NCBI GenBank assembly: GCA_012729475.1
Contig: JAAYDB010000057.1
Coordinates: 5,203-69,202, forward strand
Source: Bacteroidota bacterium
Lineage (GTDB): Bacteria > Bacteroidota > Bacteroidia > Bacteroidales > VadinHA17
DNA length: 64,000 nt
Direction of reading: 5' to 3'
The notes beneath the pieces are model-generated. The model saw nothing but the letters and a program-made list of their open reading frames with translations, searched no databases and was not told the DNA's origin. Positions within the stretch are counted from its first letter, which is position 1; each line of letters starts with the position of its first letter. Position numbers and translations under genes: made by a program. Below are positions 9,976-64,000 of the stretch, one piece after another.

Positions 9976-10167
9976 ATGAGTTTAAAGAATTATTTTCAGG
10001 AATCATTCACCGAACTGGTCCATAAGGTCACATGGCCCACCTGGAGTGAACTTCAGAACAGTGCCGTGCTGGTGATGGTTGCCAGTCTGATAATTGCTCT
10101 TATTGTTGCTGCAATGGACTTTACATTCAGCAGGATAATGGAGGCTGTTTACAATTTGTTATATTAA
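9976..10167 (+). CDS. secE: Preprotein translocase subunit SecE
   Basis: 63 aa, single C-terminal TM helix, conserved position before nusG. Confidence 0.9.
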   Translation: MSLKNYFQESFTELVHKVTWPTWSELQNSAVLVMVASLIIALIVAAMDFTFSRIMEAVYNLLY

Positions 10168-29290: not shown

Positions 29291-29365
29291 TTTTTGTTAT
29301 CTTTTCTGAACATATTAACAATGCGATAACAATGTCTTATTGTTCAATGTGCTTTTTTATCATTT

Positions 29366-30487
29366 ATGAAAATAATTGCAGATGACAAGATCCCTTTTCT
29401 GAAAGGTGTACTGGAACCTTTTGCGGAAGTGGTCTATCTTCCGGGTAGTGAAATAAACAGAGAAATAGTTTTGGATGCCGATGCTTTGCTGACAAGAACA
29501 AGGACGAAGTGTACATCTTCATTTCTCAAGGGAACAAAATTGAAATTTATCGGTACAGCTACCATTGGTTTTGATCATATTGATACGGATTATTGTCAGA
29601 AGAATAATATTTTCTGGACAAATGCTCCGGGTTGTAATTCTTCTTCTGTTCAACAGTATATGATTTCTGCCATACTCAAAGCAGCAGAAAAAAGTCATTT
29701 TGCTTTGCGTGGCAAGACCATTGGTATTGTAGGAGCAGGGAATGTAGGTTCAAAAGTTGAAAAATTCGCCAGGCTGACAGGGATGAAGGTTTTGGTTAAT
29801 GATCCTCCGAGAGCCCGGAGGGAAGGTGGAAATAATTTTGTGGATCTGCCGGTTGTGCTGAGAGAAGCCGATATGATAACTTTTCATGTGCCTCTCAATA
29901 TGTCGGGTTCAGATAAAACGTGGCATCTTTTTAATATGGGAGTATCGGGTGTTATGAAAAAGGGGGTATGGGTTTTTAACACTTCACGCGGAGAGGTCAC
30001 TGATACTGATACTTTGAAAAATATTATACGAAGCGGACTGGCCGGTGGAGTGGTTCTTGATGTGTGGGAAAACGAACCCTGTATTGATACATCTCTTATG
30101 GCGGAGGTTTTTTTGGCAACTCCTCATATTGCAGGTTATTCAGCTGATGGAAAGGCAAACGGAACTTCAATAATAGTGAATGCCCTTTGCGACTATTTCA
30201 GTTTGCCATTGAGGAAATGGTATCCCTCTGTTCCTTCTCCACCTGAACCTCTGATCCGCATAGACACCACAGGGAAAAAGGATGAAGAAATAATAAGAGA
30301 AGCTGTCATGCACACTTATAATGTTGGTAAGGATGATAGTGATTTAAGGTCTGACCCGGCTTTATTTGAAAAGCTGAGGGGTGACTATGGTTTACGGCGT
30401 GAGTTTTCAGCTTATACAACAGAACTATTGCCATATTCTTCTGATGTTGCCGGAGTTCTGAAAGAAATGGGCTTCAGTGTAAAATAA
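29366..30487 (+). CDS. pdxB: 4-phosphoerythronate dehydrogenase
   Basis: FIGTATIGFDHID, GIVGAGNVGSKV, HIAGYSADGKANGT and the PdxB-type C-terminal dimerisation domain. Confidence 0.88.
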   Translation: MKIIADDKIPFLKGVLEPFAEVVYLPGSEINREIVLDADALLTRTRTKCTSSFLKGTKLKFIGTATIGFDHIDTDYCQKNNIFWTNAPGCNSSSVQQYMISAILKAAEKSHFALRGKTIGIVGAGNVGSKVEKFARLTGMKVLVNDPPRARREGGNNFVDLPVVLREADMITFHVPLNMSGSDKTWHLFNMGVSGVMKKGVWVFNTSRGEVTDTDTLKNIIRSGLAGGVVLDVWENEPCIDTSLMAEVFLATPHIAGYSADGKANGTSIIVNALCDYFSLPLRKWYPSVPSPPEPLIRIDTTGKKDEEIIREAVMHTYNVGKDDSDLRSDPALFEKLRGDYGLRREFSAYTTELLPYSSDVAGVLKEMGFSVK

Positions 30488-43932: not shown

Positions 43933-43940
43933 TAATTTTG
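43933..43940 (+). promoter_or_regulatory. -7 promoter box TAATTTTG
   Basis: TAnnTTTG match. It overlaps the TTG at 43938, which argues for the ATG at 43977 as the true start. Confidence 0.4.
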
Positions 43941-43976
43941 CCCCCTGAAAAAAGAAAGTCAATTCTGTTGATTATC

Positions 43977-46900: not shown

Positions 46901-47273
46901 TAAAAAGAAAAATATATTACAATATTCAGGAGCTTTTAATCCGCTTATTATTTTCCAGGGAGGAGAACTCAAAGAATACAAGGCAGACAGGATGCCCATA
47001 GGTATATATTATGGTGAAGAGATCTCTTTTACCAATTATTTAATAAATGTTTCCAGAGGGGACACTCTTTATATTTTTTCTGATGGTTATGCTTCACAGT
47101 TCGGAGGACCCGGGGGGACAAAATATAAAAAAAGCAATCTTCGTAAATTGCTGTCAGAGATATACTACAGGCCGATGGATGAACAAAGGAAAATCCTTCT
47201 TGAAGAGTTTGAGAGATGGAAAGGTGCTGCCGGTCAGGTAGATGATGTAACCATTCTGGGAATAAGGTTATGA
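43977..47273 (+). CDS. Periplasmic beta-propeller / Y_Y_Y sensor fused via one TM helix to a SpoIIE-type PP2C phosphatase
   Basis: Signal peptide, propeller repeats, Y_Y_Y motif (QYQYFIEG...WSPWS...YTLQIRARD), TM helix, PP2C motifs (SGDFYWI, ADCTGHGVPGAFMS, SDGYASQFGG, DDVTILG). Confidence 0.8.
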   Translation: MRRIFLLVLFILLLPCLLMAQHGSPLLTHYTESRDIENQNWAICQDENNVMLFANRKGILVFDGAEWSLLRIPAVPYSMQKNPYNGKIYIGGYNNFGFLEKDAEGSYSYVSLSGNIVGVGVITKIAFRDSLVYFYGDRSLIRYNLRENVFEMNLNSRPDLPYTGLIITSQNTFVNVTDKGLYRIDSDTLFPIVTGYLTEKEIILFSLPYDEYRVLVGFGSGRLALFDGIKYYDYTIKDENYLQENILSEGIMLGDSTFAFSTLEGGALIVDKYSRDVRFTLNNQNSLPDDEIFAIGSDNTGGLWLSHQYGLTRADLSLPVENYTILPGLHGNLSSALTFNDELYVATSEGVYYLAEVKNYTEVEVLIKKEEPIKTVSVVNEAEMPEQKAEKGRKGIFARILGRTANHIDDIDSDDREEIHVVIQDKPVEQYTWKTVSKLKSIDNIYRKVEGMNEKCRQLVSTPYGILAATNQGLYAIKDHKAELIMKNRYINYIAWTPVGSRYWVGASGGYFAVSFLNGHWRQETPDPGFTNPVHSILQEDSRTLWLGIDNAAYKANLKANNNKVNYIPYVLPNDFPERYMIDMINDTIYIFTEAGIHYYDPGSDRFEFFHEEGASEEPGIIVPVSNHRFYKRGKEWKSLDKPKTKENELSLLKIFDDIVALTLEPDKIWLIDENNQLFGIDRARSSNVKPEVNVYIKSISNGKGVKFTPDNVNFERGDNVLNFEIIAPGYLKQNSTQYQYFIEGNMEDWSPWSERTVYERTIANPGNYTLQIRARDLWGNISEIQSVRFNVKAPFTRTAGFYVATGLLLLLLIIFVIRFRERQLRNKTKFLEDKVQERTFKIESQKQEITSSIEYASRIQMAMLPTEDHIKELFDDYFVIFKPRDIVSGDFYWIGEDSKSVFFTVADCTGHGVPGAFMSTMGISTLNEIISNNHNLQANKILNLLRTKTMTALHQTGKIGEAADGMDIAFCALDKKKNILQYSGAFNPLIIFQGGELKEYKADRMPIGIYYGEEISFTNYLINVSRGDTLYIFSDGYASQFGGPGGTKYKKSNLRKLLSEIYYRPMDEQRKILLEEFERWKGAAGQVDDVTILGIRL

Positions 47274-51174: not shown

Positions 51175-51624
51175 ATGGAAGATATGGCAGCAAGAGTTAT
51201 GTTTTACGGGGTGGATTATATACCTGAGGAAGGATTGACCTATTCGGTTATACCGGCGCGGTACAGAAGAAGGTGGATTTTTGTCAGACATTATGACAGT
51301 GATGGATGGGAGCTTGCAGCCGGGCATATTGAAAAGGGAGAGTCAGCTGAAGATGCTGCGGGCAGAGAGCTTACAGAAGAGACCGGTGCCCGGGAATTTA
51401 TGTTATATCCTGTAGCAACTTATTCTGTGGAAGAGAATGGTGTAAAAGATTACGGGCAACTGTTTTTTGCAGAAGTGACAGAGATGAGTGATCACACTGA
51501 TATTGCAGAGATATCGGAGGTCATTATATGTGATTGGTTACCTGAAGACATGACATATCCGGATATTCAGCCGGTATTATTCAGAAAAGTTATTGGGTAT
51601 ATCAGGGAGAAGAGTCTGTTTTAA
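51175..51624 (+). CDS. NUDIX hydrolase
   Basis: NUDIX box GHIEKGESAEDAAGRELTEETG. ATG at 51175 preferred over the TTG at 51124. Confidence 0.75.
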   Translation: MEDMAARVMFYGVDYIPEEGLTYSVIPARYRRRWIFVRHYDSDGWELAAGHIEKGESAEDAAGRELTEETGAREFMLYPVATYSVEENGVKDYGQLFFAEVTEMSDHTDIAEISEVIICDWLPEDMTYPDIQPVLFRKVIGYIREKSLF

Positions 51625-52805
51625 ATATACTCGAAGCTTATCTTTTTTATCCAGTTTTCCTCAAGCAGGCGTGCTATACGTTTGATTACAGTTCGTCTTA
51701 TCTCCAGTTCTACAGGCAGGGTGGGGTCCTGGTGGGCAATATTTATTCTAGTACCGATAATAAAATGTATTTCGTCACTTTCCATCAACAGGCGGACAAT
51801 TTTGTCAGCAGGGCCCTTTCCCAGTTTAACACTGTTATTGAATGTTTTAAGAATTACATTAACTTTCTGGAGGGTCAGTATGCCTTCAGTGACAAGGTCA
51901 ATACCTTCCAGAAAACTTTCAGGAGGCAGTTCCGGATCTTCAAAAATTAGATTATCAACAATTTTTCTGTTAAGTTCTCGTGCAATTATGTCGGCAGTTG
52001 TTCCTCCGCAGAGAATAACTCTGCCCGGATAATTTTTAACTTTTGCAGCAAGTTCCCTGTCTTTTTCCTTTTCATACGGAGGTCCGGTACACAACAGCAG
52101 TTTTCTGGGTTCACGGAAGTACATGACAGCACAACTGATATCATCTTTTGCCTTGTAATGGTCATTTTTATAGGCCATGCTTACAATTTTCGAGGCCAGC
52201 ATAGATGCCGACAGTGACGGATTACCCGAGACAAGAGTGGCTGCATAAGATGCAATATTATCTCTTTCCCATCCGAAAGGAAATGAATCACTGCCCATTC
52301 CACTCTGTGAAGCTCCGTCGGAACAGATTATTATTCTGTCTTCTTTTTCGGGGATGAAGGTACAGGATCTGAGGATCTTGCCTGCATGTTGTCCTTTTTC
52401 CAGAATTATTTCTTTCCACTGAGGATCAAATAACTTACTACCCCTAAGTATTATGGTTAATGGATTATCGTATTCGAGTATGTTTACTTTTCCGCTGCTT
52501 TCAATATCTGCTATGGTAAACGTAGAATATGCTATTTTTCTGTTACTGCATACAGGCAGGGTATTCATAATTATTTCTGCAATAAGGTCCACCTCCTTGT
52601 GTTCCCGGGTGAAATTGAGGGCCATTGTGGCAGTCAGGGTGGCAAGAATGTTTGCTTTTACACCGTGACCCATACCATCGGATAACACTGCAATTATCCT
52701 GTCCTCTTCCTTAATATATTTATTGAGAAAAACATCGCCGCAGATCCTTTCTCCGTAGTGATTTCTCTGTTGGCTGTTGACCTCAATATAAAAATCCTTT
52801 TGCAT
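51621..52805 (-). CDS. SpoIIE/PP2C-type serine phosphatase with an extra C-terminal domain of about 190 aa; last gene of the hydS-like operon
   Basis: GERICGDVFL and VLSDGMGHGVKANILA PP2C motifs. 11-nt gap to the upstream H-domain gene. Confidence 0.75.
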   Translation of the reverse strand: MQKDFYIEVNSQQRNHYGERICGDVFLNKYIKEEDRIIAVLSDGMGHGVKANILATLTATMALNFTREHKEVDLIAEIIMNTLPVCSNRKIAYSTFTIADIESSGKVNILEYDNPLTIILRGSKLFDPQWKEIILEKGQHAGKILRSCTFIPEKEDRIIICSDGASQSGMGSDSFPFGWERDNIASYAATLVSGNPSLSASMLASKIVSMAYKNDHYKAKDDISCAVMYFREPRKLLLCTGPPYEKEKDRELAAKVKNYPGRVILCGGTTADIIARELNRKIVDNLIFEDPELPPESFLEGIDLVTEGILTLQKVNVILKTFNNSVKLGKGPADKIVRLLMESDEIHFIIGTRINIAHQDPTLPVELEIRRTVIKRIARLLEENWIKKISFEYI

Positions 52806-52816
52806 GAAAATGCTTA

Positions 52817-54694
52817 TCAGTTACCTTTTTTTGTGCTTCTTTTTTTATGTGTTTCAATAATTGAGTTTAACATCTGTTCTGTTTCAGAAGCTCCTTCTCC
52901 AAGAAGAAATCCTATATTCTGAACCATCTCAAGGTTTTTGTCAATAACCTCACTTACTCTGTTGATAAGTTCTTCCCCCTGGACCTCAGGGGCATACAGG
53001 TCGCGAATGACAGCACCGCAGATCTTGTTTTTCTTAATGGGGAAGATTGATATGTTAAGCATCTTTTCTTCTATATGGATATCTTTGCTCACAACGGGTT
53101 CATCTTCTTTCAGGACAAAAGTGAACATATTGTAAACGTTGAAAGGCATAAGCGTTTTCAAATCAGCACCTGCCAGTCCGGGTATTATTTCTGATATTGC
53201 CTGGGCATCTTCCCCAATGATATTTATGAAGCTTTGATTTGAGTGGACAACCTTCAGGGCATTGTCAACTATGACAACAGCACTTGGTAATTTTTCAAGC
53301 ATGTTGTTCATCATCTCTGAGGTATTTTGTGCAAGTTCTTTTTCTTTCAGAGCTAATTCTTCAGATTCTTTCAATGCCCTTTTTGTTTCAGCCAGTTTTC
53401 TGTTAGTCTGTCTAAGAGTCTCTATGTATTCCTGTTTATTGCGGACATTGTATGTGTGGCACATTTCCGGCACCGCAAGTCCTTTGGCAACAGTAGTGGC
53501 AAAGTCGCGGCACGACTTGTATCCACATGCTCCACAATCGAGTTCATCTTTTGGGTCCTGTCTGCCTATTATTTTAAGTACTTCATTTATTGCTTCTTCC
53601 GGAGGTTCCTGTATCCTTTGGTCGTTAGGGGTAAAGGAGCGGGAGAAATCAAGTTTCAACCATCTATCCATATTTTTTTGCCATAAATCCTTGTCAAGAG
53701 TGCTAATTCTTTTCTCTGTATAACGGCTTACGAGAGCCCTTCTCCTGAACTTTTCCATATGGTTCTCCATGCCGGGGCCAAGCAGGCAGCCATGGCAAAA
53801 AAACAGATTAAAATGATGTCTGAGAGTATCAATATATTTATCAAAATCATTAATAGCTTCAAGAGCATCTTCCTTCCCTGAAGCTGTTATGACTCTGCTG
53901 GAAATCATGTCCCTTTTCAGGCCTCCGGCCTGTATTATCCCTGCGGGAACAGGATATAAAGCTCCCCAGTAACCATAAGGCGGATCAAATTCCGACATTT
54001 TTACCAGTCGTTCCTGTATCCCGTATTCATCGAAGAGCTGCCTGAGCTCTATAAATGTCAAAACTCCGTCAACCAGTCTTCCCGACCTGTAAATTAATGC
54101 TTCATCTTTTGCATCAATACACGGACCTATCTGAATGGTGATGACATCTTCTCCATAAAGTTCCTTTACTACCATTGCTGTCGCAATCATCGGTGAAACG
54201 ATAGGAGCCAGATTAGATGCAATTTCCGGATGGAATTTTTCAATCAACTTAACTATAGCAGGACAATTAGCGGTGATGTAGTACTTTCCTTCAGCCTCAC
54301 TGAAGAGTTCTGCATATTTTGACGCAATAAGATCAACACCGAACGAAACCTCATGAACATAGTCGAAGCCAAGTGATCTGATCATAGCCACAAATTTTCT
54401 ATAATCGGTTATGTCATCAAATTCTGAAGCTATACTGGGTTCAATAAGAGCTGCTTTCTTTTTTTCTGATTTAAGGAGGTGTTTAACCTCCTCTTTTGAA
54501 TCACGAAATTCAATGGCACGCGGAGAGCAGGAAACATAACACAGACCACACCCGATACACCTGGAAGGAATAATTGTGGGATGCTCTTTCTGAGGCCTTA
54601 CTTCAATCGCATTAACAGGGCAAACCCGCACACAGGAATATGAATTACGGCATTTATCATCATTGATGTACAGAACCGGCTTCCTTTCGTTCAT
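52817..54694 (-). CDS. hydS: Putative sensory [FeFe]-hydrogenase-like protein (HydS type): 2x ferredoxin-like motifs, H-cluster domain, Cx2Cx4Cx16C motif, PAS
   Basis: H-domain motifs TANCP (54260-54274), GPCIDAKDE, FFCHGCLLGPG. Also CGACGYKSC..(16)..C, a coiled coil, then a PAS-like segment (VVIVDNALKVVHSNQSFINIIG). Confidence 0.75.
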   Translation of the reverse strand: MNERKPVLYINDDKCRNSYSCVRVCPVNAIEVRPQKEHPTIIPSRCIGCGLCYVSCSPRAIEFRDSKEEVKHLLKSEKKKAALIEPSIASEFDDITDYRKFVAMIRSLGFDYVHEVSFGVDLIASKYAELFSEAEGKYYITANCPAIVKLIEKFHPEIASNLAPIVSPMIATAMVVKELYGEDVITIQIGPCIDAKDEALIYRSGRLVDGVLTFIELRQLFDEYGIQERLVKMSEFDPPYGYWGALYPVPAGIIQAGGLKRDMISSRVITASGKEDALEAINDFDKYIDTLRHHFNLFFCHGCLLGPGMENHMEKFRRRALVSRYTEKRISTLDKDLWQKNMDRWLKLDFSRSFTPNDQRIQEPPEEAINEVLKIIGRQDPKDELDCGACGYKSCRDFATTVAKGLAVPEMCHTYNVRNKQEYIETLRQTNRKLAETKRALKESEELALKEKELAQNTSEMMNNMLEKLPSAVVIVDNALKVVHSNQSFINIIGEDAQAISEIIPGLAGADLKTLMPFNVYNMFTFVLKEDEPVVSKDIHIEEKMLNISIFPIKKNKICGAVIRDLYAPEVQGEELINRVSEVIDKNLEMVQNIGFLLGEGASETEQMLNSIIETHKKRSTKKGN

Positions 54695-54720
54695 CTTATT
54701 CTATCATTTCGGAATTATTT

Positions 54721-54966
54721 TTATTTCGAGAATTCCCTGTCAAGGATCTCTTCAATATTCGAAAGTGAGATGCCCTCTATAACCTTATCTCCAATCCTGA
54801 TATTGGGCCCCTTACTACATCTGCCCATACAACGGTCTCCCTTAAAAACAACTTTGTCTTCAAGATAGTTTTTTTTCAGATATTCTCTTATAAAAGTAAC
54901 CAGCTCTTTGTTGCCTCTCGAAAAACAAGAACTGCCCAGACAAATTTGCATCTCATTTACCTGCAT
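54721..54966 (-). CDS. Small thioredoxin-like [2Fe-2S] ferredoxin (NuoE-type fold)
   Basis: 81 aa with Cx4C...Cx3C (CLGSSC ... CMGRC). Confidence 0.7.
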   Translation of the reverse strand: MQVNEMQICLGSSCFSRGNKELVTFIREYLKKNYLEDKVVFKGDRCMGRCSKGPNIRIGDKVIEGISLSNIEEILDREFSK

Positions 54967-54998
54967 AATTTCTAATGCTCATTGTAAAACATCCGCAT

Positions 54999-55006
54999 CA
55001 AAAATA
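54999..55006 (-). promoter_or_regulatory. -7 promoter box TATTTTTG (minus strand) for the 2Fe-2S/hydS/PP2C operon
   Basis: Plus strand reads CAAAAATA, 33 nt upstream of the ATG at 54966. Confidence 0.4.
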
Positions 55007-55182
55007 CTAATTAATTTTTAGCAGCTAATATCATATATCATAATATAACTGTCATATTTTATGTATTCCTTAGCTCATTATTAGTATTATTAATAAATAA
55101 ATCTGTAAATTTTACTCCGGCTGTTCGCACTGATGACTTAAAAACACACTTCAGAATCACACTTAAAAAACCCGGAATTTTA

Positions 55183-55196
55183 TTGTTATTTAACAA
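55183..55196. promoter_or_regulatory. Palindrome TTGTTA-TT-TAACAA (Rex-type half-sites, non-canonical spacing)
   Basis: Read directly; lies 4 nt upstream of the 18-nt Rex-like operator. Confidence 0.3.
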
Positions 55197-55199
55197 ACA

Positions 55200-55217
55200 T
55201 TGTTATTTTATTAACAA
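55200..55217. promoter_or_regulatory. Candidate Rex operator TTGTTATTTTATTAACAA overlapping the -33 region of the hydCBA promoter
   Basis: 17 of 18 match to the clostridial-type Rex consensus TTGTTAA-N4-TTAACAA. It ends 9 nt upstream of the -7 box, and rex is encoded in the same operon. Confidence 0.55.
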
Positions 55218-55225
55218 TAAAATAT

Positions 55226-55233
55226 TATATTTG
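55226..55233 (+). promoter_or_regulatory. -7 promoter box TATATTTG for the hydC-hydB-hydA-sensor operon
   Basis: TAnnTTTG match 22 nt upstream of the ATG at 55256. This excludes the GTG at 55235 as the start. Confidence 0.5.
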
Positions 55234-55255
55234 TGTGGTATATAAAACATATCTG

Positions 55256-55726
55256 ATGACAACAGAGATTGATACGATTCTCAGAAATTACAAACAAGGG
55301 AAGAGGGATCAGTTAATTCCTCTGCTTCAGGAGATACAGGAGAAAGCCGGATTCTTGTCGGAGGATTCTATTGTTGAGGTCGGCAGGTATGTAGGGCTAA
55401 GCACAACAAAAATCTACAGTCTTGCGACGTTTTATGACGAGTTCAGGTTCTTGCCGGCAGGAAAGATACAGATTTCCGTATGCAATGGTACATCCTGTTA
55501 TCTGAACGGATCAAAAGCAGTTATCGACAAGTTAAAAGAAGAAACAGGGCTATTGCCGGGGCAAACAGACCGCGATGGTATTCTCAGTTATGATATAGTG
55601 ACCTGTATGGGAGGGTGTAATCATGGACCGGTTATCTGTATTAATGGCGAATACTATAACAATGTAAAAGCGGAGCAGTTGCCTGATATGATCAGAAAGC
55701 TAAGGTATATTTTTGATAATGATTAA
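55256..55726 (+). CDS. hydC: NuoE-like [2Fe-2S] subunit of a trimeric [FeFe]-hydrogenase (HydC-like)
   Basis: Cx4C...Cx3C (VCNGTSC ... CMGGCNHGP). Directly abuts the NuoF-like gene. Confidence 0.8.
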   Translation: MTTEIDTILRNYKQGKRDQLIPLLQEIQEKAGFLSEDSIVEVGRYVGLSTTKIYSLATFYDEFRFLPAGKIQISVCNGTSCYLNGSKAVIDKLKEETGLLPGQTDRDGILSYDIVTCMGGCNHGPVICINGEYYNNVKAEQLPDMIRKLRYIFDND

Positions 55727-57661
55727 ATGGAAGACCTGAAAAAATATCTTTTGGAGAATGTGTTGCTGCATGAGTCTGACACTCTCTCTGATGAGGCTGA
55801 ACAGTGTCTGGAGAAGATCAGGAGGGAGAAACCAGACAAGCCGGTTATTTTTTTATCATCCGGCACTGCAGGGAAAATTGCCGGGTCGGATAAGACTTTT
55901 CAGGCCATGACCACTTTTTTTTCTGAAAACAGATATGATGCAGAAATAGTAAGAGTGGGGTGTAGCGGGCCGGCGAATTTTGAACCCGGTCTTTGTATTC
56001 AGCTTCCGGGCAAAAACAAGCTTTTTTTCAGGAATATAACGGAAGAAAAAGTTGAGCCTTTACTGAACGGTGTTTTTCATAATGATATTAACAAGGATGA
56101 TCTGTTTGGTCAGTTGGGGACGAAAGAATTCGGATTATGGCCGGGAGTACAGTTTCTTGATGAACTTTCCTTTTTTTATCACCAGAAACGGGTTGTACTT
56201 GGTAAGTACGGATGCTATGATCCCGAAAGTATTGAAGAATATATAGCCCGGGGTGGTTACCGTACATTCGTAAAGACTATCAGGCATTACACCTATGAAG
56301 AGGTATGTGATATTGTTGTACAGAGCGGATTAAGAGGAAGAAGTGGAGGAGGCTATCCTACCGGTCTGAAGTGGAAGCAGGTCCTTAACTCAGGAGCCTC
56401 AACAAGATATCTGATATGTAATGGCAAAGAGAGTGATCCGGGAGCTTTCACTGACCGGCTTATTCTTGAAAACGACCCTCACAGATTGATAGAAGGAATT
56501 GCAATAGCTGCTTATGCTACAGGGGCGGCACAGGCTATAATATTTTTCCACAGAGGTTCGGATCATATTATGCAAAGGCTTGAAAAAGCAATTGACAGTG
56601 CCAAATCATATGGTCTTCTGGGCCACAATATTTTGTCCAGTGCCTATGACCTCGAAATCATTCTAAGGAAGGAACCGGGAGCATTTGTTTGTGGGGAGGA
56701 GACAGCACTGATCAGTGCTCTTGAGGGCCGAAGAGGGATGCCTCAGCTGAAACCTCCTTATCCGACAACTTCAGGTCTTTTTGGAAAACCTACAGTGATA
56801 AACAATGTGGAAACCCTGATGAATGTGCCTCTTATTATGCAAAATGGTCCTGAGTGGTTCCGTTCTCTCGGAACAGAAAACAGTCCGGGCACTAAAATTT
56901 TTGCTGTTGCAGGGAAAGGCCGTATGTCAGGAGTTATAGAGGTTGAGATGGGTACCAGCATAAAAAGTATTGTTGAAGACATTGCTGATGGAGTAAAAGA
57001 GGGTAAGAAGCTGAAAGCTGTACAGATGGGAGGTGCTTCAGGGTCGTTTATTACACCTGAAAACCTGGATGTAATAGTTGATTATGAAGAATTGAGTTCC
57101 AGAGGTATTATGATGGGCTCAGGTGGTTTCATTGTTATTGATGAGACAATTTGTATGGTCGACCTTGTAAGATATTACATGGAGTTTATGCATGCCGAAA
57201 GCTGTGGAAAATGTATACCCTGCAGGGAAGGAACAGGACGTATGCTGGAGATACTCGAAAGTATTATAAGGAAACCCGCCAGTGAAGATTCAGGTACCAC
57301 TCTGGAGCGGTTCAAGGGAGTTATGCAGCTGGAAACCATTGCTTCGGTAATGAGAGATACTTCTATGTGCGGACTGGGCCAGACAGCCCCTAATCCCTTT
57401 ATAAGTGCCCTGGAAAATTTCAGGGAGGAATTTGAAGAACATATTTTTGACAGGATATGCAGGGCTAATATATGCAGAGGCCTGAGATCCTTTTCTATTG
57501 ATGTGGAAAAATGTACCGGGTGTACAGCCTGTGCATCAAAATGTCCTGTAAATGCTATTTATGGCACCCGTCTTCAGCCTTTTTTTATCGTCGAAGAAAA
57601 GTGTACGGGGTGTGGTATATGTTATGATGTTTGTAAGTTCAGTGCAATAAAAGTCAAATAG
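55727..57661 (+). CDS. hydB: NuoF-like flavoprotein subunit (HydB-like): FMN/NAD(H) site, N3-type 4Fe-4S, C-terminal 2x[4Fe-4S] ferredoxin domain
   Basis: GRSGGGYPTGLKW, ESDPGAFTDR, ESCGKCIPCREG, CTGCTACASKCP and CTGCGICYDVC. Confidence 0.85.
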   Translation: MEDLKKYLLENVLLHESDTLSDEAEQCLEKIRREKPDKPVIFLSSGTAGKIAGSDKTFQAMTTFFSENRYDAEIVRVGCSGPANFEPGLCIQLPGKNKLFFRNITEEKVEPLLNGVFHNDINKDDLFGQLGTKEFGLWPGVQFLDELSFFYHQKRVVLGKYGCYDPESIEEYIARGGYRTFVKTIRHYTYEEVCDIVVQSGLRGRSGGGYPTGLKWKQVLNSGASTRYLICNGKESDPGAFTDRLILENDPHRLIEGIAIAAYATGAAQAIIFFHRGSDHIMQRLEKAIDSAKSYGLLGHNILSSAYDLEIILRKEPGAFVCGEETALISALEGRRGMPQLKPPYPTTSGLFGKPTVINNVETLMNVPLIMQNGPEWFRSLGTENSPGTKIFAVAGKGRMSGVIEVEMGTSIKSIVEDIADGVKEGKKLKAVQMGGASGSFITPENLDVIVDYEELSSRGIMMGSGGFIVIDETICMVDLVRYYMEFMHAESCGKCIPCREGTGRMLEILESIIRKPASEDSGTTLERFKGVMQLETIASVMRDTSMCGLGQTAPNPFISALENFREEFEEHIFDRICRANICRGLRSFSIDVEKCTGCTACASKCPVNAIYGTRLQPFFIVEEKCTGCGICYDVCKFSAIKVK

Positions 57662-57666
57662 CTGAT

Positions 57667-59388
57667 ATGCTTTTTACTATTCAGGTCAATAACAGGAAAA
57701 TCAAAGCTGAAAAAGGAGAAACTATTCTGTCAGCTCTTAATCGTAACGGCATCAGGATCCCGACTCTTTGCAGGATGGCTGATTTTTCTCCAACCGGAGC
57801 CTGCCGGATATGTGTTGTTGAAGTGGAAGGAAGAGACCGTCTTGTAACTGCCTGTTCACAACCTGTGGAAGAATGGATGAAGATCAGAACACATTCTCCC
57901 CGTGTTATAACTGCACGCAAAACAATTGTGGAAATGCTGTTATCAAATCATCCTGATGACTGCCTTTATTGCGATAAAAACCTTAATTGTGAATTACAGA
58001 GACTGGCTGAAGAGTTGAATATAAGAGAAAGGCGTATTCGTGCAAAAAAAATAAAACCCCGTCTTGACCAGTCGAGCCCTGCTATTGTAAGAGAGTTATC
58101 AAAATGCATCCTTTGCGGCAGATGTATCAGAGTGTGTGAAGAACTTATATCTGCCAATTCAATCGATTTTATTGGAAAAGGAAGCAAAACACATGTTGGT
58201 CCGGCGATGGACCGTGACTTTAATTTTTCCAGCTGTATTCATTGCGGACAATGCGTTATGGTTTGTCCTACCGGTGCACTTCATGAAAAACATAATTTGG
58301 TGGAAGTACAGGATTACCTTCATCATAACGACATAGCAAAAGTTATTCAGTATTCTCCTCTGGTCACTATAGGTATAGCCGAAGAGATGGGGATAAAATA
58401 TAACAAAGATTTTGACAGGACACTGAATTCCATTCTTCGCAGAATAGGTTTTAACAAAATATTTAATTCAGGAGTAGGAACTGATATCTGTATTACAGAA
58501 ATAGCTGGTCAGCTTCTTGAAAGGATAAAGAACGAAACGGAAGATCCCTTGTATATCTCAGCGTGTCCTTCATGGGTTAAATATGCCGAGCAGTTTATGC
58601 CTGATATCATTCCTCAATTATCAACAGTCAAGTCGCCCCAGCAGTTGACAGGGGGTCTTATTAAGACACTTATTGCAGATAGTTCGGGAATAATGCCTGA
58701 GAAGATTTTTTCGGTATCCGTTACTCCATGCATGGCTATGAAGTTCGAAGCCAGAAGAGATGGTATGATGAGAAAGGGTATCAGTGATGTTGATTCAGTT
58801 ATGACGGTGCGGGAGCTGGCAAGGCTGATAAGGCTTTATGGTATCGATATTTCAAACATTGAGCCTGAACCGGCCGATGAGCCGATGGAGGGAAGTAGTT
58901 CTGCAGCTGGCCTGACTGAAATATCAGGCGGAATTACAGAAGCCGTTTTACGCTTAGTGTATTTTTATGAATACAAAAATGATGCTGATAAGCAGCTATT
59001 CAAGAGATTACGTGCCGGAGGTGCATTCAGGGAAACATCTCTTATGATTGCAAACAGGAAGATAGCAGTTGCCGTTGTTGACGGGCTGACTGGTCTGGAA
59101 AAACTCAGGGCAGCCTTCAATGCAGGCAGAAAATATAATCTTATTGAAGTGATGACTTGTCCGGGAGGATGCATTAACGGCGCAGGTATGCCTTTCGCTA
59201 TGCATGAAATTAACATAAAGTCAAGAAGGAAAATAATATATCAGGCTGATGAAACTGATCCGATAAATCTTCCGTGTAAATCGCCGGTTAACATAAATAT
59301 GTATGATAAATACTTAAAAGAGAATGAGGTATTGTCAGATAAAAAAGTTTTTTATACACATTATATAAAGAGGAATGTATTGTTGTGA
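57667..59388 (+). CDS. hydA: [FeFe]-hydrogenase large subunit, HydA-like (M3 architecture), with non-canonical H-cluster pocket residues
   Basis: N-terminal 2Fe-2S (C35, C46, C49, C63), HPDDCLYC..C His-ligated cluster, 2x CxxCxxCxxxCP. H-domain motifs are ISACPSW, TPCMAMKFE, EVMTCPGGCINGAG. Confidence 0.8.
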   Translation: MLFTIQVNNRKIKAEKGETILSALNRNGIRIPTLCRMADFSPTGACRICVVEVEGRDRLVTACSQPVEEWMKIRTHSPRVITARKTIVEMLLSNHPDDCLYCDKNLNCELQRLAEELNIRERRIRAKKIKPRLDQSSPAIVRELSKCILCGRCIRVCEELISANSIDFIGKGSKTHVGPAMDRDFNFSSCIHCGQCVMVCPTGALHEKHNLVEVQDYLHHNDIAKVIQYSPLVTIGIAEEMGIKYNKDFDRTLNSILRRIGFNKIFNSGVGTDICITEIAGQLLERIKNETEDPLYISACPSWVKYAEQFMPDIIPQLSTVKSPQQLTGGLIKTLIADSSGIMPEKIFSVSVTPCMAMKFEARRDGMMRKGISDVDSVMTVRELARLIRLYGIDISNIEPEPADEPMEGSSSAAGLTEISGGITEAVLRLVYFYEYKNDADKQLFKRLRAGGAFRETSLMIANRKIAVAVVDGLTGLEKLRAAFNAGRKYNLIEVMTCPGGCINGAGMPFAMHEINIKSRRKIIYQADETDPINLPCKSPVNINMYDKYLKENEVLSDKKVFYTHYIKRNVLL

Positions 59389-59460
59389 AATCCGGGCCAT
59401 TGAAGGTCGGTACTTTGAAACAGTATTAGTAAGAGGGTTAAGAAAATTAAAGGAGAAGTG

Positions 59461-61422
59461 ATGCTGGTCTATACAATTAAAGAGCTTTGTCGTACCTGTT
59501 ACACCTGTGTCAGGGAGTGTCCTGCAAAAGCGATCCGTATAGTGGGGGGACAGGCAGAAGTGATTGATGAGAGGTGCATAGGATGCGGTAACTGTACTAA
59601 AGTTTGCAGCCAGGGGGCAAAGGTATTTCTCCGTACTACCGACAGAGTACTTAAACTGCTCCATAATGGTTCGGATGTAGCTGCAATAGTGGCTCCCAGT
59701 TTTCCTGCTGAATTTGGAGATATACCTGATTATCATTTACTGATAGGTATGATAAGGGCCCTCGGCTTTAAATATGTAAATGAAGTATCATTTGGGGCGG
59801 ATATTGTGGCTGATAAGTACAAAAAGCTTCTGGAAGGCAGTGATAAATACTATATCACATCTGATTGTCCCTCCATAGTCAACTATATAAAGTATTACCA
59901 TCCGGGTCTGGTTGATCGTCTGGCCCCAATAGTTTCACCCATGGTTGCCATGAGCAGGGTTGTCCGCAAAAAATTTGGCAGTAATACAAAAATCGTTTTT
60001 ATAGGTCCGTGTGTGGCAAAAAAAGCAGAAAGTTCTGAGATTGATGAGGTTATTACTTTTCTGGAATTGAGGGACATGCTTACCTCTGCCGGTATATCAC
60101 CTGAGAAGGTTATTCCTTCTGATTTTGATCCGCCCAGGGGAGGCAGGGGCTCTATATTTCCAGTAACGAGGGGCTTGTTACAGACAGCACACATTAATGA
60201 TGATGCCATAACAGGTAATATTATTGCTGCAGAAGGAAGGATAGGTTTTCAGGAGGCTCTTAAGGAACTGGAAGCCGGACTAATAAAGAATCAGCATATG
60301 GAGCTTTTGTGCTGTGAGGGATGCATCATGGGTCCCGGACTTTCCAAGAACGGGAAACAATATACCAGGAGAGCCCTTGTAAGTGCTTATGCCAGTCAGA
60401 AAATGGATGACCTTGATCATAGCTTATGGGAAGAAGCTTTTGACGAATATGGGAAAATTGATTTATCAGTACATCATAAAGCAGAAGATCACAGGTTTGA
60501 AATACCTGACGAGACGGAGATCGAAGACGTACTTATTTCAATGGGCAAGTTTACAAAAAAAGATCATCTGGATTGTGGTGCATGCGGTTATGAGAGTTGT
60601 ATTGAACATGCAATAGCTATTAAGAAGGGTCTTGCTGAAATTGAGATGTGTCTGCCATATACAATAGAAAAATTACATAAATCAGTTCAGGATCTGGCCT
60701 TGTCAAACGAGAAACTTAGCTCTATGAAGGAAGCTTTGAGGCAATCTGAAAAGCTGGCACACATGGGACAGTTGTCAGCCGGTATAGCTCATGAACTGAA
60801 TAATCCACTCGGGGTGGTAATAATGTACAGCAATATTCTCCTTGATGAATGTCAGCCTGAAGATCCTGTTATAGAAGATATTAAACTTATTGTTGAACAG
60901 GCCGGGCGATGCAAGAAAATAGTGGCAGGCCTTCTTAATTTTGCCAGAAAAAATCAGGTTAATCATCAGATAGTCAATGTTAAGGATCTGATAAATCATA
61001 GTTTTGAAAGTGTCATAATCCCGGAGACTATAAAAACGAGTATCGTTGATAAGACGAGTAATCCTGATGCCATGATCGATCCGGAACAAATAATGCAGGT
61101 TACCACAAACCTGATAAAAAATGCTGTTGATGCCATGCATAGCGGAGGAGAACTGATTGTTACTCTTGAGGATACACTGAGTGATGTCAGTATAACCATT
61201 TCGGATACAGGAAGCGGTATCAAAGAAGAAGACAGAGTAAAAATATTTGAACCTTTCTATACAACAAAAGGTATAGGAAAAGGAACGGGCCTCGGACTTG
61301 CAACAGCTTATGGCATTGTTAAAATGCATAAGGGGCAGATAAGTGTAGAATCAAATGATGATCCCGGAGCAGGTCCAACAGGAACAAGTTTTAAAATACT
61401 CCTTCCACGAAGAAAGGAATGA
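59461..61422 (+). CDS. H-cluster-domain protein fused to a histidine kinase (ferredoxin motifs, H-domain, Cx2Cx4Cx16C, coiled coil, HisKA, HATPase_c)
   Basis: CRTCYTCVRECP, CIGCGNCTKVC. H-domain motifs TSDCP (59857-59871), GPCVAKKAE, LLCCEGCIMGPG. CGACGYESC..(16)..C. H-box AGIAHELNNPL, N box NLIKNAVDA, G boxes DTGSGI and GTGLGL. Confidence 0.8.
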   Translation: MLVYTIKELCRTCYTCVRECPAKAIRIVGGQAEVIDERCIGCGNCTKVCSQGAKVFLRTTDRVLKLLHNGSDVAAIVAPSFPAEFGDIPDYHLLIGMIRALGFKYVNEVSFGADIVADKYKKLLEGSDKYYITSDCPSIVNYIKYYHPGLVDRLAPIVSPMVAMSRVVRKKFGSNTKIVFIGPCVAKKAESSEIDEVITFLELRDMLTSAGISPEKVIPSDFDPPRGGRGSIFPVTRGLLQTAHINDDAITGNIIAAEGRIGFQEALKELEAGLIKNQHMELLCCEGCIMGPGLSKNGKQYTRRALVSAYASQKMDDLDHSLWEEAFDEYGKIDLSVHHKAEDHRFEIPDETEIEDVLISMGKFTKKDHLDCGACGYESCIEHAIAIKKGLAEIEMCLPYTIEKLHKSVQDLALSNEKLSSMKEALRQSEKLAHMGQLSAGIAHELNNPLGVVIMYSNILLDECQPEDPVIEDIKLIVEQAGRCKKIVAGLLNFARKNQVNHQIVNVKDLINHSFESVIIPETIKTSIVDKTSNPDAMIDPEQIMQVTTNLIKNAVDAMHSGGELIVTLEDTLSDVSITISDTGSGIKEEDRVKIFEPFYTTKGIGKGTGLGLATAYGIVKMHKGQISVESNDDPGAGPTGTSFKILLPRRKE

Positions 61423-61524
61423 AGATTCTTATCAGTTGAGGCTGTTGTATGTATTGATGGAAAGCTGATTGATATGGGAGGGGAGAATAATTTATTTATT
61501 AGATTGCAAAAAATACACAGAAGG

Positions 61525-61920
61525 ATGAAGAAGAGTGATTTTATGATACTCGTGGCAGATGATGATCCTGATTATCTTTACCAGACGGTAACCAATCTGG
61601 GCAAAGCAGGATACAGGACGGTGGCGGCAGAGAGTCAGGCAGAGGCAGAAGCTGTAATATCAAGAATGAAACCAGATCTTGCAATATTCGATCTGATGAT
61701 GGAAAATGATGACAGCGGTTTTATCCTGTGTTATAAGATACGAAAAAAATATCCTGATGTTCCGGTAATTCTTGCTACGGCAGTCTCACGTGAGACAGGA
61801 ATTACTTTCAGTCTCGATTCTGAAATGGATAAATCATGGATAAGGGCAGACAGATATCTGGAAAAGGGTATCCGGCCTGAACAACTCGATCAGGAAATAA
61901 TGAAATTGTTAAAAATATAA
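61525..61920 (+). CDS. Stand-alone response-regulator receiver protein
   Basis: ILVADDD...DLAIFDLMM...VILATA...EKG receiver pattern with no output domain. The start is ambiguous (61474, 61525 or 61543). Confidence 0.7.
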   Translation: MKKSDFMILVADDDPDYLYQTVTNLGKAGYRTVAAESQAEAEAVISRMKPDLAIFDLMMENDDSGFILCYKIRKKYPDVPVILATAVSRETGITFSLDSEMDKSWIRADRYLEKGIRPEQLDQEIMKLLKI

Positions 61921-61921
61921 T

Positions 61922-63052
61922 ATGGCTGAATTAAAAGTCCTTATTATTGATGATGAACCCGGAATACGTTCCGGCGTAAAAAGGATACTGAAGGATTTTC
62001 ATGTTACTTATCCCTTTATGGATGAGGATTATGTTTTTCATATAATGGAAGCCTCCACAGGAGAGGAGGGAATTGATATCATTGAACAGAACATTCCGGA
62101 TATTCTCCTTCTGGACAATAAATTGCCCGGTATCCAGGGAGTTGACGTTCTGGAGATCATTCGTGAGAAGAAATATGATATTGCTGTTGCCATGATAACT
62201 TCCTATGCTTCTCTTGATGTAGCTGTCAGGGCAACCCGTGACGGTGCAACAGATTTTATACCCAAACCTTTTACTCCACAGGAACTTAAGTCAAGCATTG
62301 AGAATATTTCAAAACAATTGTATCTGAAAAGGATTACCCACGACATGAATCAGGAGGGAAAGAAGATAAGATACCAGTTTCTTTCGGTATTGTCTCATGA
62401 ATTAAAAGCCCCTCTTAATGCTCTTGAAGGATATCTCCTGATGATGCAGGAAAAACAGGCAGGCGACAGGATTGACGATTATATTAATCATATTGACAGG
62501 TCCTTACAGAGAATACAGGGTATGAGGAACCTTATTATGGATCTCCTTGATTTTACTAAGATACGTCTTGAACGGAAAGATGAAAAAATACAGAAACTGA
62601 ATCTGGCAGATGTCGCAGCTGCAGCTTTAGTGACAGTACAGCCTTATGCAATTCAGATGGAAGTTACTGTTAATCTTGATGTGAAGAAGGAGATAATAAT
62701 TATGGCTGACCCGACAGACATAGATATCATTTTTAATAATCTTACAAGCAATGCTGTTAAATATAACAAAGTAGGAGGGAAGGTTGATATTATTATTGAT
62801 AGTGATGATAATGAAGTAATTATGAAATTTGCAGATACAGGCATAGGTATCTCGGAAGATGACAGAAAGATCCTTTTTAAGGATTTTATGCGTGTTAAAA
62901 ACGAACAGACGCGTAACATATCAGGGAGTGGTCTGGGATTATCCATTGTTAAAAAAGTTGTTGAACTTTATTTTGGATCTATTACCGTAGAAAGCAAACC
63001 GGATAAGGGGAGTATTTTTACCATAAGGTTACCAAAAAATCTGAAACATTAA
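61922..63052 (+). CDS. Receiver-histidine kinase hybrid (REC, HisKA, HATPase_c)
   Basis: VLIIDDEPGIR...LLLDNKLPG...KPF receiver. H-box LSHELKAPL, N box LTSNAVKYN, G boxes DTGIGI and GSGLGLS. Confidence 0.8.
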   Translation: MAELKVLIIDDEPGIRSGVKRILKDFHVTYPFMDEDYVFHIMEASTGEEGIDIIEQNIPDILLLDNKLPGIQGVDVLEIIREKKYDIAVAMITSYASLDVAVRATRDGATDFIPKPFTPQELKSSIENISKQLYLKRITHDMNQEGKKIRYQFLSVLSHELKAPLNALEGYLLMMQEKQAGDRIDDYINHIDRSLQRIQGMRNLIMDLLDFTKIRLERKDEKIQKLNLADVAAAALVTVQPYAIQMEVTVNLDVKKEIIIMADPTDIDIIFNNLTSNAVKYNKVGGKVDIIIDSDDNEVIMKFADTGIGISEDDRKILFKDFMRVKNEQTRNISGSGLGLSIVKKVVELYFGSITVESKPDKGSIFTIRLPKNLKH

Positions 63053-63063
63053 ACTAATTGCAA

Positions 63064-63687
63064 ATGAGACTACCGGCAAAAACTGTGGAAAGGCTGAGTG
63101 AGTACCGAAGGACTCTTCTGGAATGCCTGAGCGAAAAAAAGAATTATATTTTTTCACATGAGCTGGCCGCCCGGCTTCATATTACAGCTGTCCAGGTAAG
63201 ACGCGACCTGATGCTGATTGGATATTCCTCAGTGCAACGAAAAGGCTATGATGTAAAAGAGCTTATCGATACAATAGGAACTATAATCGATTCCACTGAA
63301 AGCCTTAATGTTGCAATAATTGGTATTGGGAATTTTGGAAGAGCTTTGGCTGCCTATTTTAAAGGCAAGAGATCGAAGCTTAATCTGGTTGCCTCATTCG
63401 ATACCGATCCTCAGAAAATAAATAAGGTAATAGCCGGAGTGAAGTGCTATCCACACAATGAGCTTGAAAAGATCATCAAGGAGCTTAATATAAAAATTGC
63501 AATACTTACTGTCCCCCCGGAATTTGGAAAAGAAACCGCAGAAGAAATTGTGAGGTACGGAATAAAAGGTATACTGAATTTTACAACTATTCCTGTTAAT
63601 GTTCCATCGTGGGTATTCCTTGAAGAATATGACATGATCACCTCCATCGAAAAAGTTGCATATTTCGTAAAAGAAAACCAGCTATAG
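63064..63687 (+). CDS. rex: Redox-sensing transcriptional repressor Rex
   Basis: N-terminal winged helix (TVERLSEYRRTL...SHELAARLHITAVQVRRDL) followed by a Rossmann motif (IIGIGNFGRAL). Confidence 0.85.
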   Translation: MRLPAKTVERLSEYRRTLLECLSEKKNYIFSHELAARLHITAVQVRRDLMLIGYSSVQRKGYDVKELIDTIGTIIDSTESLNVAIIGIGNFGRALAAYFKGKRSKLNLVASFDTDPQKINKVIAGVKCYPHNELEKIIKELNIKIAILTVPPEFGKETAEEIVRYGIKGILNFTTIPVNVPSWVFLEEYDMITSIEKVAYFVKENQL

Positions 63688-63702: not shown

Positions 63703-64000
63703 ATGAGAATATTCAGAAGTTTTAAGGAAGCAAAAGGGCTTAAGAATCCTGTTGTTACAACCGGATCTTTTGATGGTGTTCATATTGGGCATAAAACTAT
63801 TATTAACCGGCTTAAGATGCTGGCAGAAAGATATGACGGTGAATCCCTTCTCATTACTTTTGATCCGCATCCCCGGAAAGTTCTGTACCCTGAAACAGCA
63901 GGCCGTGATCTGAAGCTTATCAATTCTCAGGAGGAAAAACTTGAGTTACTGAGTAAAGCAGGTCTGGACAATGTTATAATCATTGAGTTCACAAGAGAAT
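63703..64000 (+). CDS. ribF: Bifunctional riboflavin kinase/FAD synthetase, N-terminal part (runs off the window)
   Basis: My own translation: MRIFRSFKEAKGLKNPVVTTGSFDGVHIGHKTII...ITFDPHPRKV, which contains the FAD-synthetase motifs GxFDGxHxGH and FDPHP. Confidence 0.85.
   Translation, partial: MRIFRSFKEAKGLKNPVVTTGSFDGVHIGHKTIINRLKMLAERYDGESLLITFDPHPRKVLYPETAGRDLKLINSQEEKLELLSKAGLDNVIIIEFTRE

Follow-up and report, generated by a model that had tools for sequence, protein, structure and literature searches.

We analysed a stretch of 64,000 nucleotides (nt; here called the window) from a Bacteroidota bacterium (Bacteroidales; VadinHA17), corresponding to positions 5,203-69,202 of the forward strand of contig JAAYDB010000057.1 in assembly GCA_012729475.1. 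At window positions 51621-63687 it carries ten genes, which encode a HydABC-type [FeFe]-hydrogenase, two further proteins with an H-cluster domain (H-domain), one of them fused to a histidine kinase and the other (HydS) encoded next to a PP2C phosphatase, a small ferredoxin, two proteins with receiver (REC) domains, and the redox repressor Rex. With moderate confidence we favour the reading that these genes form, across the clade, a unit for both regulation and catalysis in NADH-linked hydrogen metabolism, organised in two divergent operons. Gene content, motif states, synteny and the conservation of operators and promoters were read directly from the sequences. From these we infer, reasonably in our view, a circuit that senses H2 as well as NADH.

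Conservation and modularity of the locus

The initial annotation of this DNA, made from the window alone, had defined the ten open reading frames (ORFs), and their coordinates, strands and gaps were reproduced exactly; domain assignment with Pfam confirmed all the domains that it named except a PAS domain. The genes are closely spaced: the two minus-strand gaps measure 26 and 11 nt, and those on the plus strand 0-72 nt. The kinase fusion probably starts at ATG 59461 and hydC probably at ATG 55256, the gene calls in sibling contigs giving a HydC of 156 amino acids (aa).

The co-occurrence of this gene order was followed in a search with the kinase fusion as query and one genome per species. Full-length relatives of the kinase fusion number in thousands; 248 genomes with a relative were retrieved, and orthologues of all ten window proteins were mapped in the best 80 of these 248. 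All 80 are uncultured metagenome-assembled genomes (MAGs) labelled Bacteroidales/Rikenellaceae, with 75-80% identity to the kinase fusion, in line with the Bacteroidota background proposed at the outset. Complete ten-gene synteny was observed in 51 of the 57 species-level loci that could be evaluated on both sides. Of the 60 loci that extend far enough upstream, 54 combine hydCBA with the divergent ferredoxin-HydS-PP2C arm, and REC, REC-kinase and Rex are present in all but one of the 69 that extend far enough downstream (68/69). Gene order, orientation and tight spacing are thus retained despite protein identities of 60-85%, and such frequent co-occurrence of the ten genes goes far beyond what chance would give.

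Both sensor-type proteins, i.e. HydS and the kinase fusion, are present in type I loci such as that of the window. Type II loci (five, plus two probable ones) are devoid of the ferredoxin-HydS-PP2C arm. Type III loci, which were reached via a 70%-identical HydA representative and are present in many assemblies, are devoid of the kinase fusion; they retain the arm, hydCBA, the REC protein (81% identical), the REC-kinase (70%), Rex (78%) and the tandem operators described below. Types II and III alike keep REC, REC-kinase, Rex and operators. Since either sensor is missing in sister lineages, the constant core of the locus consists of a Rex-controlled promoter, hydCBA, REC, REC-kinase and rex, and the two sensors look like exchangeable inputs to this core. 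Where the initial annotation had seen a candidate integrated circuit, the arrangement is modular and integration is not obligatory. A further HydA with a non-canonical active site, 42% identical, adjoins a divergent ferredoxin gene and a HydS-like gene.

Two MAGs, PLMC01 (loci L018/L023) and JAVEZS01 (loci L081/L083), have a copy of the kinase-fusion locus on each of two contigs. Unless this is a binning artefact, some genomes may hold two paralogous loci, possibly with and without the phosphatase arm. In one type III locus (L085, positions 9710-10000) hydB and hydA are separated by a spacer of ~290 nt, as compared with the 5-nt gap in the window, and the spacer is filled by short tandem repeats (AATGAACAATTAGCAATTAGC-like units and runs of GGGCACAGGGC and CAAGACTG).

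Promoters and predicted Rex operators

The divergent intergenic region between ferredoxin and hydC is 268 nt long and contains two abutting Rex-operator-like palindromes (Table 1). The pattern TTGTNAN6TNACAA has its sole match in the 64 kb at the proximal box, where 0.10 matches were expected. Of 64 orthologous regions preceding hydC, 63 have the same palindrome, 48 of them in exact form, and the lone exception is a truncated contig. The palindrome of the clade is TTGTTAAn4TTAACAA, and the two boxes follow the consensus TTGTTAATAAAATAACAA and then TGTTTATTTATTAACAA, in a tandem layout that is conserved. A Bacteroidota-type -7 promoter element (TAnnTTTG) lies 7-10 nt past the proximal box in 62 of 63 loci, which places the operators over the -33 region of the hydC promoter. 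Tandem boxes and promoter were also found at loci without the kinase fusion.

Only one intergenic -7 element, at 55226, is present on the plus strand of the locus, and only one, at 54999, on the minus strand between 51600 and 55234; where 16 intergenic regions were aligned, the CAAAnnTA columns of the latter are invariant. Between the genes of either operon neither a -7 element nor a convincing terminator was found. With a single -7 element per strand, the simplest reading is a seven-gene operon that ends in rex and a divergent operon of three genes. Because the tandem Rex-type palindromes overlap the conserved hydC promoter, the operon hydCBA-kinase-REC-REC-kinase-rex is, as predicted from sequence, very probably autoregulated by Rex, and in this prediction strong comparative evidence is combined with established Rex biology. 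The initial proposal that Rex is wired to the locus has thereby gained conserved predicted operators.

Generic scans for terminators and sigma-70 promoters gave counts equal to the shuffled expectation, and the Bacteroidota -7 elements were used instead. The canonical Rex consensus with at most 3 mismatches was found 6 times in the window as against 6.7 expected, and only the clade-specific palindrome is informative. On window statistics, the Rex-like sites at 11354 and 29304 do not exceed chance expectation; the latter (TTCTGAACATATTAACAA, 29304-29321, 2 mismatches) lies 45 nt upstream of a gene for an NAD-dependent 2-hydroxyacid dehydrogenase (29366-30487). A second conserved block of the intergenic region, at 54970-55006, comprises the minus-strand -7 element and, on the side of it that faces the ferredoxin start, a TGTT-N8-AACA inverted repeat. 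This repeat resembles a pair of Rex half-sites set closer together, and its form in the window is a weaker one (TGCT...AACA). An Rfam scan returned only tRNAs far from the locus, and no riboswitch at it. At the other end of the locus, a ribF-like riboflavin kinase/FAD synthetase gene (63703-64000) lies 15 nt past the rex stop and may be co-transcribed with rex. The ribF-like gene also follows rex in sibling contigs of the same species; type III loci have a convergent beta-eliminating lyase gene instead.

Table 1. Genes and regulatory elements of the hydrogenase locus, in window coordinates.
Feature	Position	Strand	Evidence or remark
PP2C/SpoIIE-family Ser/Thr phosphatase, 394 aa	51621..52805	-	Pfam SpoIIE E=3e-10
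HydS-type putative sensory [FeFe]-hydrogenase paralogue, 625 aa	52817..54694	-	Fe_hyd_lg_C E=7.2e-37, 2x[4Fe-4S], PF04060
Small thioredoxin-like [2Fe-2S] ferredoxin, 76-81 aa, in HfsA position	54721..54966	-	Pfam 2Fe-2S_thioredx E=6.5e-9
Bacteroidota-type -7 promoter element TATTTTTG (minus-strand reading)	54999..55006	-	Minus-strand operon
Two tandem Rex-operator-like palindromes	55183..55217	+	Degenerate distal box 55183-55200; proximal box TTGTTATTTTATTAACAA 55200-55217
Bacteroidota-type -7 promoter element TATATTTG	55226..55233	+	8 nt downstream of proximal Rex box
hydC, NuoE-type 2Fe-2S subunit	55235..55726	+	Pfam 2Fe-2S_thioredx E=2e-42
hydB, NuoF/BfuB-type flavoprotein with C-terminal 2x[4Fe-4S]	55727..57661	+	Pfam
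hydA, M3-architecture H-cluster subunit	57667..59388	+	Fer2_4, NADH-G, Fer4, Fe_hyd_lg_C E=1.3e-66
H-domain::histidine kinase fusion, 653 aa	59461..61422 (ORF from 59458)	+	Fer4, Fe_hyd_lg_C E=4.7e-43, FeS, HisKA, HATPase_c
Stand-alone receiver (REC) protein	61474..61920	+	Pfam Response_reg
REC-HisKA-HATPase, receiver-controlled kinase	61922..63052	+	Pfam
rex, NADH/NAD+-sensing repressor, last gene of operon	63058..63687	+	NCBIfam and Pfam

The H-domain proteins and their partners

All three matches to Fe_hyd_lg_C (PF02906) exceed the gathering score. As the initial annotation had expected, the three proteins align with the H-cluster ligands of [FeFe]-hydrogenases: the four cysteines (Cys300, 355, 499 and 503; active-site residues are given in CpI numbering) are present in HydS and the kinase fusion as well as in HydA and are kept across 55-80 orthologues, with strictly conserved L1-L3 frameworks.

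By their motif signatures, HydS and the kinase fusion bear the hallmarks of the putative sensory group C. They are paralogues, 39% identical over 471 aa through a helical linker and divergent only in the output module. Each consists of N-terminal 2x[4Fe-4S], the H-domain and a C-terminal Cx2Cx4Cx16C motif (DCGACGYxSCx16C being conserved), followed in HydS by a coiled-coil linker and a divergent PAS-like domain, and in the kinase fusion by a signalling helix with HisKA and HATPase in place of PAS. Motif 3 is CxxC in both rather than CxxxC, and both are without the canonical proton pathway (Glu279/Glu282). HydS reads TANCP (Cys299 to Asn), GPCIDAKDE (Met353 to Gly, Lys358 to Ala) and FFCHGC. The kinase fusion reads SDCP (Cys299 to Asp, in 80 of 80 species), GPCVAKKAE (Gly353, with Lys358 kept) and LLCCEGC; its H-box SAGIAHELNNP is found in 79 of 80 species, and its N- and G-boxes are conserved. 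Asp is the sole substitution at position 299 that was reported to preserve activity in prototypical enzymes (PMC10055695).

T. maritima HydS (TmHydS) resembles the window sensors in its 2x[4Fe-4S], the four cysteines, the missing Cys299 and Glu279/Glu282, Gly353 and the Cx2Cx4Cx16C motif (PMC8163306, PMC10055695), and is likewise encoded beside a trimeric NADH-linked hydrogenase. With Ala131 and Gly177 at positions 299 and 353 it binds a normal H-cluster (PMC10055695), and both TmHydS and TamHydS turn over H2 slowly (PMC10055695, PMC8163306). In contrast to the Ala of TmHydS, position 299 is Asn in the window HydS and Asp in the kinase fusion; HydS differs further in Ala358, its CxxC motif 3 and its marginal PAS, and the fusion in its HisKA-HATPase.

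HydA, HydB and HydC are encoded together in the layout of group A3, i.e. an M3-architecture subunit, a NuoF-like subunit with an extra C-terminal [4Fe-4S] and a NuoE-like subunit. The best matches of the subunits in the PDB are HydA and HydB chains of T. kivui, A. woodii and T. maritima. HydB can be aligned over residues 44-643 with BfuB/HydB chains from bifurcating complexes of solved structure (E between 1e-146 and 1e-160), and HydA matches best to T. kivui HydA1 (E=7e-128), its ISACPSW aligning with TSCCPSW. The HydABC architecture assumed initially for the central hydrogenase is thus borne out; its active site is non-canonical. Five substitutions (Cys299 to Ala, Glu279 to Ile, Glu282 to Gln, Met353 to Thr and Lys358 to Met) are conserved in about 72 species. 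The stretches TSCCPxW and MPCxxKKxE of CpI and of the HydA proteins from T. kivui and T. maritima are ISACPSW and TPCMAMKFE in this HydA. The proton pathway has been reported to be conserved in groups A and B (bioRxiv 10.64898/2026.09.22.753672). HydA and Rex were also scored against the curated cut-offs of NCBIfam, and HydA stayed below that of FeFe_hydrog_A6, the NADH-dependent A6 family (588 vs 765 bits).

In a HydA comparison library clustered at 50% identity (150 representatives for motifs, 123 H-domains in a tree), one representative is >50% identical to the window HydA and the next are at most 45% identical. Cys299 is kept in 96 of the 150 representatives, Cys299 and Lys358 together in 75 of the 123 H-domains, and many of the nearest relatives of the window HydA are likewise non-canonical. 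Monophyly of the non-canonical HydA proteins was not resolved in a crude neighbour-joining tree of the 123 H-domains. A limited literature search gave no description of these active-site losses in a HydABC-type subunit. A. woodii HydA1 and 24 of the 150 representatives read TSCSP, with Ser at the position of the Cys300 ligand, which fits the P1 variability noted in PMC11406978. The N-terminal ~165 aa of the window HydB (55727-56230) have SSGTAG and CSGPANFEPGLC where 9bov_B, a BfuB-type homologue of solved structure, has GLGSCG and CIGLCFFEP. Judged from these motifs, the thioredoxin-like domain may have lost its [2Fe-2S] cysteines, which could bear on bifurcation.

The catalytic domain of the PP2C protein (~aa 20-230) has the metal-binding motifs GD, SDGMGHG, SDG and DDIS, conserved in 55 orthologues, and gave a weak match to RsbX in the PDB search. 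No Pfam, NCBIfam or PDB match was obtained for its C-terminal domain (aa ~235-394). These C-terminal 160 residues (window 51621-52100) are highly conserved, with many invariant positions, and may be a partner- or substrate-binding module. A FliG match in PDB searches with the PP2C protein and the C-terminus of HydS was dismissed as noise. A larger SpoIIE/PP2C protein of 1111 aa, with a C-terminal phosphatase and 900 unannotated N-terminal residues, is encoded 4.3 kb upstream of the locus (window 43938-47273). The small ferredoxin corresponds to the C-terminal half of a NuoE-type fold; its Cx4C...Cx3C is present, and ICLGSSCF is invariant in 57 of 57 loci. The ferredoxin-HydS-PP2C operon stops after PP2C, and a convergent NUDIX gene comes next.

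The lone REC protein keeps its DDD residues, the phospho-acceptor Asp (AIFDLMM), Thr and Lys across about 75 loci, and the REC-kinase keeps its receiver Asp, its G-boxes and its H-box LSHELKAPLN (the latter in 71 of 71). Rex scored above the NCBIfam cut-offs (NF003995, 196 vs 126 bits; NF003996, 179 vs 138), has the Pfam domains Put_DNA-bind_N and CoA_binding (winged helix and Rossmann fold) and keeps GxGxxG.

Proposed circuit, rival readings and precedents

The circuit that we propose builds on what is established for Rex, its operators and NADH, for the binding of an H-cluster by group C enzymes, and for the chemistry of kinases and PP2C. At low NADH/NAD+, Rex would sit on its operators and repress the seven-gene operon, including rex itself; when NADH accumulates, Rex would leave, and HydABC would be made along with the signalling proteins. 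H2 would be read by two paralogous modules, in each of which a slow H-cluster domain of group-C type lies between the N-terminal 2x[4Fe-4S] and a [4Fe-4S] motif at the C-terminal side. In the kinase fusion the linker would enter the DHp helix, and the state of the H-cluster would set autophosphorylation and phosphotransfer to the adjacent receivers; in HydS it would lead to a PAS-like domain controlling the co-transcribed PP2C. Both branches would meet at the REC/REC-kinase pair, which might tune the expression or activity of HydABC via an unlinked effector, and as an outcome hydrogen production would track NADH supply and H2 back-pressure. The H2 dependence of the outputs, the convergence of the branches and the regulatory target are what we infer here, and the H2 part draws by analogy on homology to enzymes whose sensing role is itself putative.

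A bolder version, which we put forward tentatively and would not expect to hold as a whole, is that all three H-cluster proteins are of sensory type. HydABC might then work as a deliberately slow, gated valve for hydrogen, or take part in the sensing itself, and the sensors would be interchangeable inputs to one REC/REC-kinase node, which together with autoregulated Rex would compute NADH supply versus H2 back-pressure. If this is true, no signalling pathway downstream of an [FeFe] H2 sensor would have been defined before this one, and its cross-talk between Ser/Thr-phosphatase and His-Asp signalling would be unusual.

Several points weigh against an H2-sensing circuit or one of its parts. To our knowledge, no experiment ties any group C enzyme to a phosphorylation output. 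Lys358, which in prototypical enzymes hydrogen-bonds the distal cyanide ligand, is retained only in the kinase fusion (HydS has Ala, Ser or Asn and HydA has Met, each with Lys at 359), and the H-cluster in HydS and HydA is therefore only presumed. No radical-SAM or HydF-type gene was found among the window ORFs of at least 150 aa, a scan that covers every ORF of HydE/F/G size and agrees with the initial annotation on the absence of these maturases. In the C-terminus of HydS six PAS-clan families match one stretch, all below threshold (E=0.014-0.24), with sub-threshold PAS-clan matches in 12 of 12 orthologues (best E=3e-4) and marginal PDB matches only, to Aer2 and to a histidine-kinase PAS domain; of the H-domain::PAS protein described initially, the H-domain stands and the PAS domain falls short of Pfam thresholds. 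AlphaFold2 models of HydS (predicted local distance difference test, pLDDT, 43) and PP2C (pLDDT 53, C-terminus <50) were too poor for fold comparison because the input alignments were shallow (81-87% identity). Among the ten locus proteins there is no Hpt, DNA-binding or enzymatic response regulator, STAS or anti-sigma partner. With neither an Hpt domain nor a DNA-binding response regulator in the locus, the phosphorelay of the initial annotation was loose wording: H-boxes, ATP-binding boxes and receiver Asp are in place, but Hpt and a terminal output regulator are not. As to Rex, the operator half-site differs from the published consensus at one position, symmetrically, and the site lies in AT-rich DNA. 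Finally, group C and D enzymes have been studied spectroscopically with partner, output and signalling mechanism not established, and the C-terminal cluster of TamHydS was not reduced by H2 (PMC13104023).

The last observation would also suit another explanation, in which the two additional H-domain proteins belong to an enlarged HydABC as subunits for electron transfer or catalysis ('BfuT'), or else sense the redox poise of ferredoxin/NADH, and kinase and phosphatase report electron flux rather than H2. Consistent with this, both sensors carry N-terminal 2x[4Fe-4S] relay clusters, the phosphatase arm has its own 2Fe-2S ferredoxin, such proteins have been named the T subunit of BfuABC(T) (PMC11406978), and H2 turnover by TmHydS and TamHydS is slow (see above). 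We nevertheless consider it unlikely, as a HisKA-HATPase fusion with intact H-box and a co-transcribed PP2C are signalling and not redox modules, the locus already has a dedicated NADH sensor in Rex, and the loss of either sensor without loss of hydCBA argues against an obligate structural subunit. Still less probable is that no H-domain holds a functional [2Fe] subcluster, in which case 'HydABC' would be a Bfu-type NADH/ferredoxin oxidoreductase without its former hydrogen chemistry and the locus would serve general redox regulation only. The five HydA substitutions in all ~72 species, the lack of Lys358 in HydS, the HydA score below the A6 cut-off and the lack of hydEFG within the window speak for such a loss, and the low activity and minimal transcription of the group A3 catalytic subunit of B. 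thetaiotaomicron (PMC12578642) may be added as a lead only. However, cluster cysteines and L1-L3 frameworks strictly kept over about 80 species are unexpected after cofactor loss, TmHydS binds a normal H-cluster with Ala299, and the kinase fusion keeps Lys358 and has the activity-preserving Asp299 (PMC10055695). As context only, uncultured populations of Bacteroidales in anaerobic digesters express Hyd genes and coexist with H2-/formate-consuming methanogens (PMC7661554).

BfuABC clusters are highly mobile between phyla (PMC11406978), and the modules are found in differing combinations, as could be expected from a fortuitous neighbourhood or from co-transfer on a mobile segment with no functional coupling. 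Order, orientation and spacing kept in 51 of 57 species at 60-85% protein identity, the conserved Rex operators at the promoter of an operon ending in rex and the lack of internal promoters all stand against it, and by synteny and operator conservation this very improbable explanation is effectively refuted. A regulatory and catalytic unit for NADH-linked hydrogen metabolism is the reading that we retain.

The architecture of this unit is of an already known kind, given the precedents in HydDB, PMC11406978, the hfs operon and the Rex regulons of Firmicutes, and the novelty initially implied for the two-output arrangement is not supported. HydDB has histidine-kinase-linked (C1) and phosphatase-linked (C3) putative sensor classes (PMC5037454). 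PAS-type and His-kinase-type 'BfuT' (called C3) were described in 2024 beside A3 hydrogenases of Hydrogenedentota, Calditrichota and three cultured Bacteroidota. In the latter, Perlabentimonas, Tenuifilum and Williamwhitmania, one bfuT lies upstream of bfuC and one downstream of bfuA, and the implications were called unclear (PMC11406978). Compared by this published description, their BfuT/BfuABC have the same layout as the window; the paper is without discussion of Rex, operators, the REC/REC-kinase pair, PP2C or substitutions in the A subunit.

The order small protein-HydS-Ser/Thr phosphatase of the minus-strand arm matches hfsABCD of Thermoanaerobacterium and hydS of Ruminococcus albus. While hfsABCD ends in the ferredoxin-dependent hydrogenase HfsD/HydA2, the window arm is without a fourth gene and its partner is the divergent HydABC; the window also adds a kinase-fused sensor, in a Gram-negative Bacteroidota host. 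Deletion of hfsB raises adhE expression and ethanol yield in Thermoanaerobacterium, i.e. a regulatory phenotype (PMC5707799, PMC11837493), and the initial statement that no signalling output had been demonstrated for such proteins needs qualifying in this respect. The HoxBC-HoxJ-HoxA system (group 2b [NiFe], Cupriavidus/Ralstonia) is a precedent for a low-activity, H2-sensing hydrogenase that controls a kinase and thereby hydrogenase expression (PMC5707799, PMC5037454). It has an unrelated metal centre and family, a separate kinase subunit and the DNA-binding HoxA, whereas the window has a fused kinase without a linked output regulator.

In Firmicutes, Rex represses redox-balancing genes and often rex itself, hydrogenase genes included (Caldicellulosiruptor, Thermoanaerobacterium) (PMC6391272, PMC2883068, PMC5886521), from an 18-bp palindrome, TTGTGAAN4TTCACAA (PMC2883068, PMC6391272). 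These regulons share the type of palindrome with the window, where the half-sites are TTGTTAA/TTAACAA. The window differs in that two abutting operators overlie the -33 region of its Bacteroidota-type promoter and that rex closes the hydrogenase operon. New, as far as we found, are the wide and precise conservation of the locus in Bacteroidales, the placing of tandem Rex operators at a Bacteroidota promoter, the invariant pairing of REC with REC-kinase, the natural single-sensor variants and the sensory-like active site of HydA.

A kinase-fused sensor has a directly assayable output and offers a tractable entry point to [FeFe] H2 sensing, and the locus provides likely partners (REC, REC-kinase and PP2C) together with a defined promoter with predicted Rex operators. 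The natural knock-out variants without one sensor permit comparative work, and cultured relatives with the same layout have been reported. Members of the clade abound in fens, sediments and anaerobic digesters, where H2 partial pressure governs fermentation and methane formation, which would make the circuit ecologically relevant. The non-canonical HydA bears on the question of which residues are truly required for H2 turnover in bifurcating enzymes.

A defence role was dismissed, PADLOC having given generic kinase and receiver similarities only. Elsewhere in the window, a tyrosine integrase gene (6770-7660) adjoins five tRNA genes (8105-8537 and 9888-9960), and after these, up to 21196, follow the gene for EF-Tu and two unannotated ORFs of 1269 and 1457 aa, which have the size of RpoB/RpoC. 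A 7TMR-DISM histidine kinase is encoded at 31273-33327.

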